NCBI RefSeq assembly: GCF_000026545.1
Contig: NC_011601.1
DNA from: Escherichia coli O127:H6 str. E2348/69
GTDB taxonomy: Bacteria; Pseudomonadota; Gammaproteobacteria; Enterobacterales; Enterobacteriaceae
Length of the DNA: 64,000 nucleotides
Strand: one strand, 5' to 3'
A program made the position numbers. The first letter of the stretch is position 1. Every line of letters starts with the position of its first letter. Shown here one piece after another: positions 54,001-57,000 of the stretch.

Positions 54001-57000
54001 CCATGTGGCGTCAGATGGTGGAGGGATAATGACAACTCAGCACACAACTGAACGGATGATTCAGGAATATGTCCCTGGTAAGCAGGTCACGCTGGCACAT
54101 GTCATCGCCAATCCCGGGAAGGATCTGTTTAAGAAATTGGGTTTACCAGACACCGTTTCTGCTATTGGCATTCTGACGATTACCCCCAGCGAAGCATCTA
54201 TCATCGCATGCGATATCGCCACAAAATCAGGCGCTGTAGAGATCGGTTTTCTTGATCGTTTTACCGGTGCCGTAGTGCTGACTGGTGATGTTTCTGCCAT
54301 TGAATATGCACTTAGCCAGGTTACCCGTACGCTGGGTGAAATGATGCGCTTTACCGCCTGCCCCATTACGCGGACCTGACGTTATGCAACGTATGATGCT
54401 TATCGGCCCCAGCCAGTGCGGAAAAACGTCACTCACGCAATGTCTGCGTGGCGAAAATATTCATTATCAGAAAACGCAGGCTATCGTCTGGTCCCCGGCC
54501 ACCATTGATACACCAGGCGAATACCTCGAAAACCGCAGCCTTTACAGTGCATTGTTGGTCAGTGCCTGCGAAGCAGACATTATCGCGCTGGTACTTAATG
54601 CGGACGCACCGTGGTCACCTTTTTCGCCAGGCTTTACCTCGTCAATGAATCGCCCGGTCATTGGAGTAGTAACCAAAGCAGATTTAGCCAGTATGGAACA
54701 AATATCTTTGGTGAAATGTTGGTTACGGGAAGCTGGAGCGCACAACGTGTTAGTAACCAGTGCGGTTAATAACAATGGAGTTACAGAACTTTTTGCCTTG
54801 CTGCATACAGAAGAAGGCTGTCGCTAATTTCGATAGGTTCTCAGATGAGAATGATGACGGTGATACACAGATAAGAATCAATGAGCAATGAGGGTTGCCG
54901 GGCAACCCTCATTGAATAAAACAGGAATTACTTCGCTTCGCCGTTTTTCATTTCGCCCATAGCTTTCAGCTTTTTGGAGATATCGCGGCGTTCTTTGGAG
55001 AGCTCGGCATTTTTGATGATGTAATCGTCAACGCGATCTTCATAGTCACCTTTCATGCTGGCGATGATGCCCTGGATTGCTTCAACGCTCATTCCTGGCT
55101 TGATGTAATCGCTCAGGTTGTCCAGCAACAGGACGCGCTTCTGGTTGTCACGGATCTTTTTCTCAACGTCCTGAATTTCACGTTGCAGTTTGTTCTTACG
55201 ACGGAACAGACGAACAAATTCCAGTACGTCCTGGAATGAAGGCTTGGTAGTTTCCATTTTTATACCCCTGATAATGTGAGAGTCGGATTCGTTTAAGCAA
55301 CCGCTATTCGTTAGGGCCAACATTACTCATAGCTGCCGCAGATGACAATGCTTTTATCCCTTTTCACTATCATACCCTTTATCCTTGCTGAATCGAAGCA
55401 GCAGCAAGATGATTCTGAAGTTCAGGAATTATTTGCGCAAGGCCCGGCAAATCAGATTCGATAGCAACTCAAGCTGATGTGCCGTTTCCATGTTCAGCCA
55501 CACATAACCATAGATTGGTGTTTCTACGACTTTCAGGTCATGGTGGTTATCGAGCAACTGACGCAACTCTTCCACAGCATCGTTCAATTTTTCCGTATTG
55601 GCAAAAACCGGCTGCGGATTACCTTCGTACAGCGCATGAACAAGGCTCAGCAGTATTTGCTGCATCATGTGCTGGGTATCACGAAGTTTTTGCGCGTTCA
55701 ATAACACGAAATGGCTGGGGCGCGTGGCCCAGTATGCATTGATTTGCAACTCCAGCATACAAACCAGATTGCGATTAATGGTCTGGATACCTTCATATAT
55801 CGATTTTGGAATACGGGTTTCTTTGCTGGCGGGCGCAATCAGCCCACGCATTTTCACGGCATCGGTCAGGAGTTTTTGTAGATGGCTTTCCAGACGCGGG
55901 CGTTCGAGTAAGTTCGGTGAGAATGCAGATTGATAGACCCGATTATACTCGGTCAGACTTTTTGCCAGTTGAATGCGCCAGTGGATGAACGCTCGTTGTG
56001 GCCAGATACCGGTAAACAACATTGCCAGTAAAGAGCCGAGGATCACATCGCCGCTTCGCCATAACGCCGTATCAATTTCACCTGTCGGGGAACCCACAAC
56101 AATTGCCAGCGTCACCCCAATCAATAAACCTTGATACGGTTTCTTGCCCAGCGCCAGCCAACCGCAAAGAAACATAGCCGCCGCGCACCAGACTAACATC
56201 AGCGGTAACGAGATTAACTCCAGTTGCAGAGCGATAAGACCTAAAATCGAGCCCAACACCGTACCGCCAATACGTTCGAAGGCACGAGGGACAACGTTAC
56301 CCCAGAACGAGATTGGCCCCATAATCACAACCATGGTGACCAGCGGCCAGGTGCTTTCCGGGATAGTAAACAGGCGGATAATGAGAAAAGTGAGCAGGAA
56401 TGCCAGCGCGACCCGAGTACCATGCACAATGCGGTAATGGCGGTATACCCGGATTTCAAACGGGCTTAATGACTTATCGGCACGCACGCAGAAACTCCGT
56501 AATGAAGATTAAAAGCGCTCATAACACATCTGTCGGCCAGAAGGCGCGCCTCTGAGTTATCCGACGGACATACCGGGAACAGTGTAATTTCCCGGCAGGA
56601 GCGAAAAATTTGAAAGGCGCATCTTACTCTTTTCGCTTTCAAAAAAAGAGTGGTCTTCGCGTTAACACACCGCCCTGAGATGAATTAGTGATGTTTTGGC
56701 TGCACCGCAACATACATTTCGATATCCTAGTACCCATCTTCCGCGCCATTGTTCAAGTAAACCTCGAAGCAGGGCTTTGGTAACATTTCATAAGCACTGT
56801 CCTGCAAGAGGCTATTAAAGAACTGATACCAGGGTTTAGCAAAATCATCACCGACTACACGAGCCACCGCCACCGCATACTGACCACCTGAAATTTCTGT
56901 CAGAATGACGCCCTCACTGTTGTCGGGGAGCGTAAAGTTATTCGGTACCGTCACGACGGTGTCGCAGCGTAATTTTTCGGCGGGTGTTTCATCTGGATTG

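Follow-up and report, generated by a model that had tools for sequence, protein, structure and literature searches.

Why does the pdu operon of the enteropathogenic Escherichia coli strain E2348/69 end at pduV? In a 64-kb stretch of the genome of this strain (hereafter, the window; all coordinates are positions in it), the operon runs from pduA to pduV and lacks pduW and pduX, the two genes that close the pdu operon of Salmonella enterica and Citrobacter. The first, PduW, is a propionate kinase that converts propionyl-phosphate into propionate with formation of ATP; PduX, an L-threonine kinase, provides the aminopropanol linker when B12 is made de novo. Both proteins reside in the cytosol, outside the microcompartment (PMC7181861). 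The answer that we favor, and consider very probable, is that the strain has the pdu locus in its usual Escherichia form, published as PDU1B, and that this form was left by a deletion of about 2.1 kb that removed pduWX in the Escherichia stem lineage. The elements of the junction on which the argument is built are the following:

54384-54827, plus strand: pduV, last gene of the operon, 147 aa, EutP/PduV family (TIGR02528, E=2.8e-55, 186.5 bits).
54828-54885, no strand: putative deletion scar, 58 bp where Citrobacter has about 2.1 kb with pduW and pduX; conserved within Escherichia.
54886-54914, in both the pdu and the tmaR transcripts: hairpin with a perfect 13-bp stem, CAATGAGGGTTGC-CGG-GCAACCCTCATTG.
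54889-54891, plus strand: TGA in the left arm of the hairpin, a candidate positional relic of the pduX stop codon.
54928-55257, minus strand: tmaR (formerly yeeX), convergent with pduV (NF040881, 187 bits; NF003844, 197 bits; RefSeq).
55429-56487, minus strand: yeeA, conserved flank (RefSeq).

The initial annotation of the window had described an operon that stops at pduV and is followed, after about 100 bp and a strong hairpin, by convergent yeeX. This description proved accurate: the spacer between pduV and tmaR (54828-54927) is exactly 100 bp long, the stem of the hairpin is perfect over 13 bp, and tmaR is followed by yeeA, sbmC, dacD and sbcB. Neither pduW nor pduX was found: a tblastn search of the 64-kb window with PduW (404 aa) and PduX (288 aa) of Citrobacter braakii returned only noise at E≤10, the best score being 23.9 bits. 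The 3.1-kb stretch around the pduV-yeeX junction is 100% identical to NZ_CP059840.2.

For comparison with other pdu loci, one scan of species-representative genomes with PduV yielded 29 loci, and PduU, PduV, PduW, PduX, TmaR and YeeA were mapped on all of them by tblastn. The PduV peptide patterns were too E. coli-specific for Salmonella and Klebsiella loci to be among the 29. Citrobacter and its relatives carry pduWX, while Escherichia does not. The order pduV-pduW-pduX-yeeX-yeeA, with yeeX-yeeA convergent, occupies the same slot in all 19 Citrobacter species, in Pseudocitrobacter vendiensis (L026) and in one more locus, L027; in these genomes YeeA matches at the syntenic position with 73-80% identity (tblastn), and the yeeX-yeeA flank comes after pduX. 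A metagenome-assembled genome of Pluralibacter (L016) also has pduV-pduW-pduX, and no TmaR or YeeA match was detected in its available DNA. The Citrobacter pduW, whose ATG overlaps the end of pduV, encodes 404 aa, and pduX encodes 288 aa. Every Escherichia locus recovered shows instead pduV, a spacer of about 100-120 bp and yeeX. These loci are those of two E. coli-named species representatives, E. whittamii and E. albertii, together with a degraded relic in Escherichia sp. MOD1-EC7003; relics of K-12 type show the same arrangement.

The end of PduV itself differs between the two genera. Residues 1-144 of the Escherichia protein align with the 150-aa Citrobacter PduV (78% identity by tblastn); the C-terminus then diverges and ends three codons on. 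The point of divergence is the place where the ATG of Citrobacter pduW overlaps the 3' end of pduV. In E. albertii, pduV (L006, 10001-10432) encodes 143 aa, its stop lying four codons earlier through a GAA-TAA change; downstream of it, GGCTGTCGTTAA is still recognisable.

Within E. coli, the junction was surveyed in 5,426 complete genomes. Contiguous pduT-U-V-yeeX-yeeA was found in 643 of them, and the whole 18-kb locus in 636. The identity of the junction is 98-100% across the 643 genomes, which represent many hosts and lineages, and about 4,770 further genomes hold only a relic of pduV, placed on the same junction. Since the pduV-yeeX junction occurs in almost all E. coli, it must be older than the species. 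This distribution bears directly on the idea that the locus of E2348/69 was trimmed recently, in its own lineage. A lesion of strain level does exist in the operon, namely the Q534 stop in pduC, and speaks for this idea; however, the presence of the same junction in 643 complete genomes, in some 4,770 relics, in E. albertii and in E. whittamii refutes a recent event, to which we give practically no credence. The statement of the initial annotation that the locus appears trimmed to its catabolic and microcompartment core must hence be divided. In comparison with Salmonella and Citrobacter it stands, as pduW, pduX and cbiA-P are missing while the catabolic and shell genes and cobUST are kept. 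As a peculiarity of this locus it does not, as every Escherichia locus recovered has the same succession of pduV, spacer and yeeX. The annotation had also allowed that loci of this type might end at pduV ancestrally, and this turned out to be so at the level of the genus, with the deletion placed, in our interpretation, in the Escherichia stem.

The search for pduW and pduX was extended genome-wide at the DNA level, using Citrobacter pduW-pduX as query (blastn, distant mode). No pduX was found in any of the 5,426 complete E. coli genomes. The query matched seven genomes: six of the matches are 63-nt segments of tdcD, and the seventh is a foreign island in E. coli strain 48. This negative result is informative because a control of equal divergence, Citrobacter pduT-U-V DNA, found 644 genomes with full-length matches as well as short pduV relics at 71-76% identity. 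The same data permit an evaluation of the possibility that pduW and pduX moved, in other words, that functional orthologues reside elsewhere on the E2348/69 chromosome or on a plasmid. Strain 48, a deer isolate, offers a precedent of sorts: it is the sole carrier of pduW among the 5,426 E. coli genomes, and the gene lies at another site, in a second pdu operon that ends with pduV-pduW and then IS66 (L032, NZ_CP166879.1, 5.246-5.261 Mb). This second island has about 75-77% nucleotide identity to Citrobacter and lacks pduX. On the other side, a search sensitive enough to find relics of 71-76% identity gave no pduX in E. coli, and pduW in strain 48 alone; E2348/69 is not among the genomes matched by pduW-pduX DNA. 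Published protein searches yield TdcD only: in a pdu-positive E. coli isolate from Crohn's disease, TdcD (44% identity) was the only PduW homologue (PMC7360682), and another study detected no counterpart of PduW in E. coli (PMC3475010). Relocation of the genes is therefore hardly credible. Both ackA and tdcD are intact in E2348/69, and their products are 42.7% and 43.7% identical, respectively, to C. braakii PduW over the full length.

The hairpin that separates pduV from tmaR provides a clue to the direction of the change. In an alignment of all loci over 110 nt upstream of the stop of yeeX, the Escherichia hairpin matched the one located after pduX in the Citrobacter amalonaticus group (CAGTGAGGATCGC...GATCCTCACTG). 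The distance from the hairpin to the yeeX stop is 11-13 nt in both genera, both arms are conserved, and compensatory changes are seen in 3 of the 11 predicted pairs. Judging by this alignment, the Escherichia hairpin is orthologous to the Citrobacter post-pduX hairpin. In the five loci of the C. amalonaticus group (L021-L025), a TGA within the CAGTGAGG of the left arm is the stop codon of pduX; in L025, for instance, the tblastn match to PduX ends at 12197 and the stop occupies 12198-12200. The TGA at 54889-54891 of the window lies at the corresponding position.

Upstream of the hairpin, no remnant of pduW or pduX could be recognised in the 58-bp spacer: local alignment against six pduW-pduX regions (four from Citrobacter, plus those of Pseudocitrobacter and Pluralibacter) gave scores of 17-24, which are not significant as the mean of shuffled controls is about 19. 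The sole meaningful match is positional, at the hairpin. An in-frame C-terminal remnant of PduX just upstream of the hairpin was also considered (GAATGATGACGGTGA compared with GGATGGTCAGCGGTGG) and was rejected: the matching bases are confined to E2348/69 and K-12 types, and were not found in E69, MOD1, E. whittamii or E. albertii.

A spacer devoid of recognisable pduW or pduX sequence is what one would also expect if pduV had been the last gene of the ancestral operon and pduW-pduX had later been inserted between pduV and the yeeX hairpin in Citrobacter, Salmonella and their relatives. In principle, the hairpin could be older than pduX. Several observations make such a gain improbable, albeit less so than the relocation discussed above. 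All non-Escherichia loci have pduW-pduX at the identical position, including the more distant Pseudocitrobacter, Pluralibacter and L027, and in those loci the ATG of pduW overlaps pduV and the stop of pduX is embedded in the hairpin. Either several gains would be needed or a single gain before the split of Escherichia, in which case a later loss would have to be invoked anyway. Furthermore, the Escherichia hairpin retains a TGA at the position of the pduX stop, and pduW is also found in distant PDU1 loci, such as that of Lactobacillus (PMC4207490). Loss in the Escherichia stem lineage is the simplest account because pduWX are present in all outgroups and because the hairpin and the stop codon look like a relic of the lost end.

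Sequence divergence along the region was also compared. With C. braakii as reference, most pdu genes show 72-81% nucleotide identity (the extremes being pduM with 57.5% and pduJ with 85%), and the flanking genes yeeA, sbmC and dacD show 71-78%. With E. albertii as reference, the figures are 87-97% for the pdu genes and 84-88% for the flanks yeeA, sbmC, dacD and sbcB. As the divergence of the pdu genes is similar to that of the flanking core genes, the data are compatible with vertical inheritance of the entire region.

In the favored scenario, the Escherichia stem lineage would have lost pduW and nearly all of pduX through one deletion of about 2.1 kb. This deletion would have extended from approximately the overlap between the pduV stop and the pduW start to a point no more than about 60 nt from the end of pduX, so that the hairpin and the final stop codon of pduX stayed in place, and the resulting junction would have been passed on to all Escherichia. 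Regarding function, propionyl-phosphate leaving the compartment would plausibly be converted into propionate and ATP by the PduW paralogues AckA and TdcD, as established biochemistry suggests. PduX would be left without a pathway to feed because cbiA-P are gone. The cofactor would come from imported cobinamide or B12, completed by CobUST and adenosylated with PduO and PduS; CobUST together with PduO, PduS and PduGH would suffice to complete and recycle an imported corrinoid. Growth of pdu-positive E. coli on fucose or 1,2-propanediol has been reported (PMC9220930).

Certain considerations weigh against this interpretation. That the genes were lost in Escherichia, and not gained in other lineages, is deduced from parsimony and from the stop-codon relic. 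As the 58 bp bear no significant similarity to pduW or pduX, the breakpoints cannot be placed with single-nucleotide precision. For Salmonella and Klebsiella, the gene order is that of the literature, not that of loci recovered here. Beyond the window, the search for pduW and pduX was made at the DNA level only, and a highly diverged paralogue in E2348/69 may have escaped it. Compensation by AckA and TdcD in pdu-positive E. coli, plausible as it is, is something that we infer. Finally, the pdu operon may be impaired in E2348/69 itself: the premature stop in pduC makes it possible that the operon of this strain is not fully functional.

The lesion in pduC involves no indel: codon 534 (43007-43009) reads TAA, against CAA (Gln) in the pdu-positive strain MLI106K3. 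The large subunit of diol dehydratase thereby loses the last 21 of its 554 residues, and in RefSeq the gene is marked as a pseudogene.

The hairpin deserves consideration as an RNA element too. Folding of the plus strand of the 100-nt spacer gave −28.9 kcal/mol with a z-score of −3.35; for the minus strand the values are −27.2 kcal/mol and −4.59, and none of 200 shuffles of that strand folded equally well. The z-scores were calculated against dinucleotide shuffles. A canonical intrinsic terminator at 54886-54914 was considered and discarded: the stem-loop is rich in G+C, but a terminator scan gave no call, and no U-run follows the stem on either strand, the plus strand reading on with AAUAAAACAGG and the minus strand with CUCAUUGAUUC. 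The hairpin is hence strong without being a textbook intrinsic terminator. An Rfam scan of the 36-57 kb interval returned no match for the spacer; it returned only the B12 riboswitch described below and an enterobacterial small RNA, STnc230, between pocR and pduF (38833-38916, plus strand; 76 bits against a gathering score of 50). Selection on its structure may also have maintained the hairpin that once ended pduX, as a 3' element of tmaR, well after pduX itself was lost.

The remainder of the pdu/cob locus in the window comprises the following features:

40296-54379, plus strand: pduA-B-C-D-E-G-H-J-K-L-M-N-O-P-Q-S-T-U, catabolic and shell core (RefSeq; NCBIfam for PduS, PduT and PduU).
37855-39784, minus strand: pocR (37855-38772) and pduF (38975-39784) (RefSeq).
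34423-36799, minus strand: cobT (34423-35502), cobS (35514-36257) and cobU (36254-36799), NCBIfam equivalogs above cut-off (RefSeq).
37589-37763, minus strand: cobalamin riboswitch (Rfam RF00174, 109.4 bits, E=5.7e-27; RefSeq), leader of the former cbi/cob operon.
36933-37439, minus strand: open reading frame with a degenerate 5' relic of cbiG; RefSeq has a 'hypothetical protein' at 36933-37370.

The genes cobT, cobS and cobU represent the nucleotide-loop assembly end of the cob operon; they are intact and are the sole cob genes kept. The initial annotation had also noted that the cbi genes are missing, and indeed cbiA-F and cbiH-P are absent: the interval of about 1 kb between cobU and pocR contains only the riboswitch and the cbiG fragment. 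Residues 24-142 of the fragment match positions 1-126 of the 351-position profile of cobalt-precorrin-5A hydrolase (E=2.2e-20), with a score of 73 bits that is far below the family cut-off of 546. The fragment implies at least two deletions, one of cbiA-F and one from cbiG' to cbiP, rather than a single event.

A second scar on the same junction is found in the E. coli strains that lack the operon, and one more feature of the window is needed to describe it:

54645-54827, plus strand: 183-bp stub of pduV, the part that survives in most pdu-negative E. coli, K-12 types included; right edge of the 17.5-kb pdu deletion.

When the junction region was used as query, most of the 5,418 matching genomes aligned from query base 1246 onward, which corresponds to 54645 in the window, and thus contain the stub and the same spacer, hairpin and tmaR. 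About 88% of the complete E. coli genomes keep only two stubs, a cbiG relic of about 305 bp next to cobU (36800-37104) and 283 bp made of pduV and spacer (54645-54927). In some strains, such as Ec-U14-2, the scar is bare, with cobU, about 220 bp and the pduV stub, and the two stubs are joined directly. K-12 types have lost the segment between the cbiG relic and mid-pduV, and at the scar they harbor the CP4-44 prophage and remnants of insertion sequences (IS). A K-12-type strain has a 60-aa coding sequence of the 'EutP/PduV family' adjoining tmaR; its K-12 gene name is presumably yoeF, and a literature search for yoeF returned nothing. The right-hand breakpoint shared by most stubs suggests one ancestral 17.5-kb deletion allele. 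In our interpretation, this later deletion, whose scar often contains CP4-44 or IS elements, would have taken cbiG'-pocR-pduF and pduA to mid-pduV in about 88% of E. coli, leaving the 183-bp stub. Two short contigs from unrelated assemblies also carry an E. coli-type pduV stub: one belongs to a Segatella copri bin (L030, 92% identity) and the other, which includes a tmaR fragment, to a metagenome-assembled genome of Planctomycetota (L029). Most likely, both reflect contamination by E. coli DNA during binning.

A broader scenario may be considered, to which we assign an even chance. The Escherichia ancestor would have had a vertically inherited locus of PDU1B type in the yeeX slot, and the roughly 88% of E. 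coli without pdu would all have received, by descent or by recombination, a single 17.5-kb deletion allele in which the cbiG and pduV stubs persist. If true, this scenario would call for a change to the classical view that cob and pdu were lost outright by the common ancestor of E. coli and Salmonella.

The layout without pduW and pduX is already known as PDU1B and is the ordinary configuration of Escherichia, probably inherited from the ancestor of the genus. What the present analysis adds is the anatomy of the putative deletion, with its relic of pduX stop and hairpin, the distribution of the junction across the genus, and the presence of the pduV stub throughout the species. The relic is a small example of decay at the end of an operon and points to the existence of a pdu locus in the Escherichia ancestor. 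The pdu locus of E. coli, a marker linked to adherent-invasive and other pathogenic strains, would accordingly be a version of the Salmonella system that depends on B12 salvage: the cofactor would not be self-made, and the last, ATP-yielding step would be left to the housekeeping enzymes AckA or TdcD. In models of 1,2-propanediol metabolism in pdu-positive E. coli, the last step should be given to AckA or TdcD, with B12 or cobinamide entered as a nutrient that the cell must obtain.

Comparison with known systems places the locus among those described by Axen, Erbilgin and Kerfeld in 2014 (PLoS Comput Biol; PMC4207490). These authors defined PDU1B with E. coli E24377A, LF82 and UMN026 and Shigella sonnei: it has all the pdu genes of PDU1A except PduX and PduW, and only cobSTU of the cob operon are co-located (PMC4207490, Text S1). 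The neighbors that they list are ykuD, yeeXAC, sbcB, yeeF, lysR and yeeZ, and their Table S2 gives E2348/69 as 'EUT1, PDU1B'. In the window, pduA to pduV are annotated or matched, with no PduW or PduX signal at E≤10; cobTSU are found at 34423-36799, the remaining cob and cbi genes being absent except for the riboswitch and the cbiG fragment; and the flanks are ldtA (a YkuD-type L,D-transpeptidase) on one side and, in this order, tmaR, yeeA, sbmC, dacD, sbcB, plaP (yeeF), yeeY (LysR) and yeeZ on the other. There is no substantive difference from PDU1B.

With PDU1A (S. enterica and Citrobacter; pduA-X with cbiA-P-cobUST), the locus shares the gene order pocR-pduF and pduA to pduV and the slot next to yeeX-yeeA-sbmC-dacD, and its proteins are 54-100% identical to those of Citrobacter PDU1A. 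In contrast, pduW (acetate/propionate kinase, PF00871), present after pduV in all Citrobacter loci compared, is missing, and of the terminal pduX (L-threonine kinase of the GHMP family, PF00288) only the stop codon appears to survive, inside the hairpin. The cbiA-P genes, which in PDU1A lie upstream on the opposite strand, are also missing, and the spacer between pduV and yeeX is 100 bp here versus about 2.2 kb in PDU1A. The stub of pdu-negative E. coli consists of the 3' 183 bp of the same pduV with an identical spacer, hairpin and tmaR junction. A parallel case is S. bongori, in which a large deletion of cob-pdu left only fragments of cobT and pduX, which confirms that pduX is terminal in Salmonella (Fookes et al. 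2011, PMC3158058). Both cases involve a large deletion in the same locus with fragments of terminal genes as scars; however, S. bongori lost the whole cluster, whereas in Escherichia cbiA-P and pduWX would have disappeared in separate events, with the catabolic core retained.

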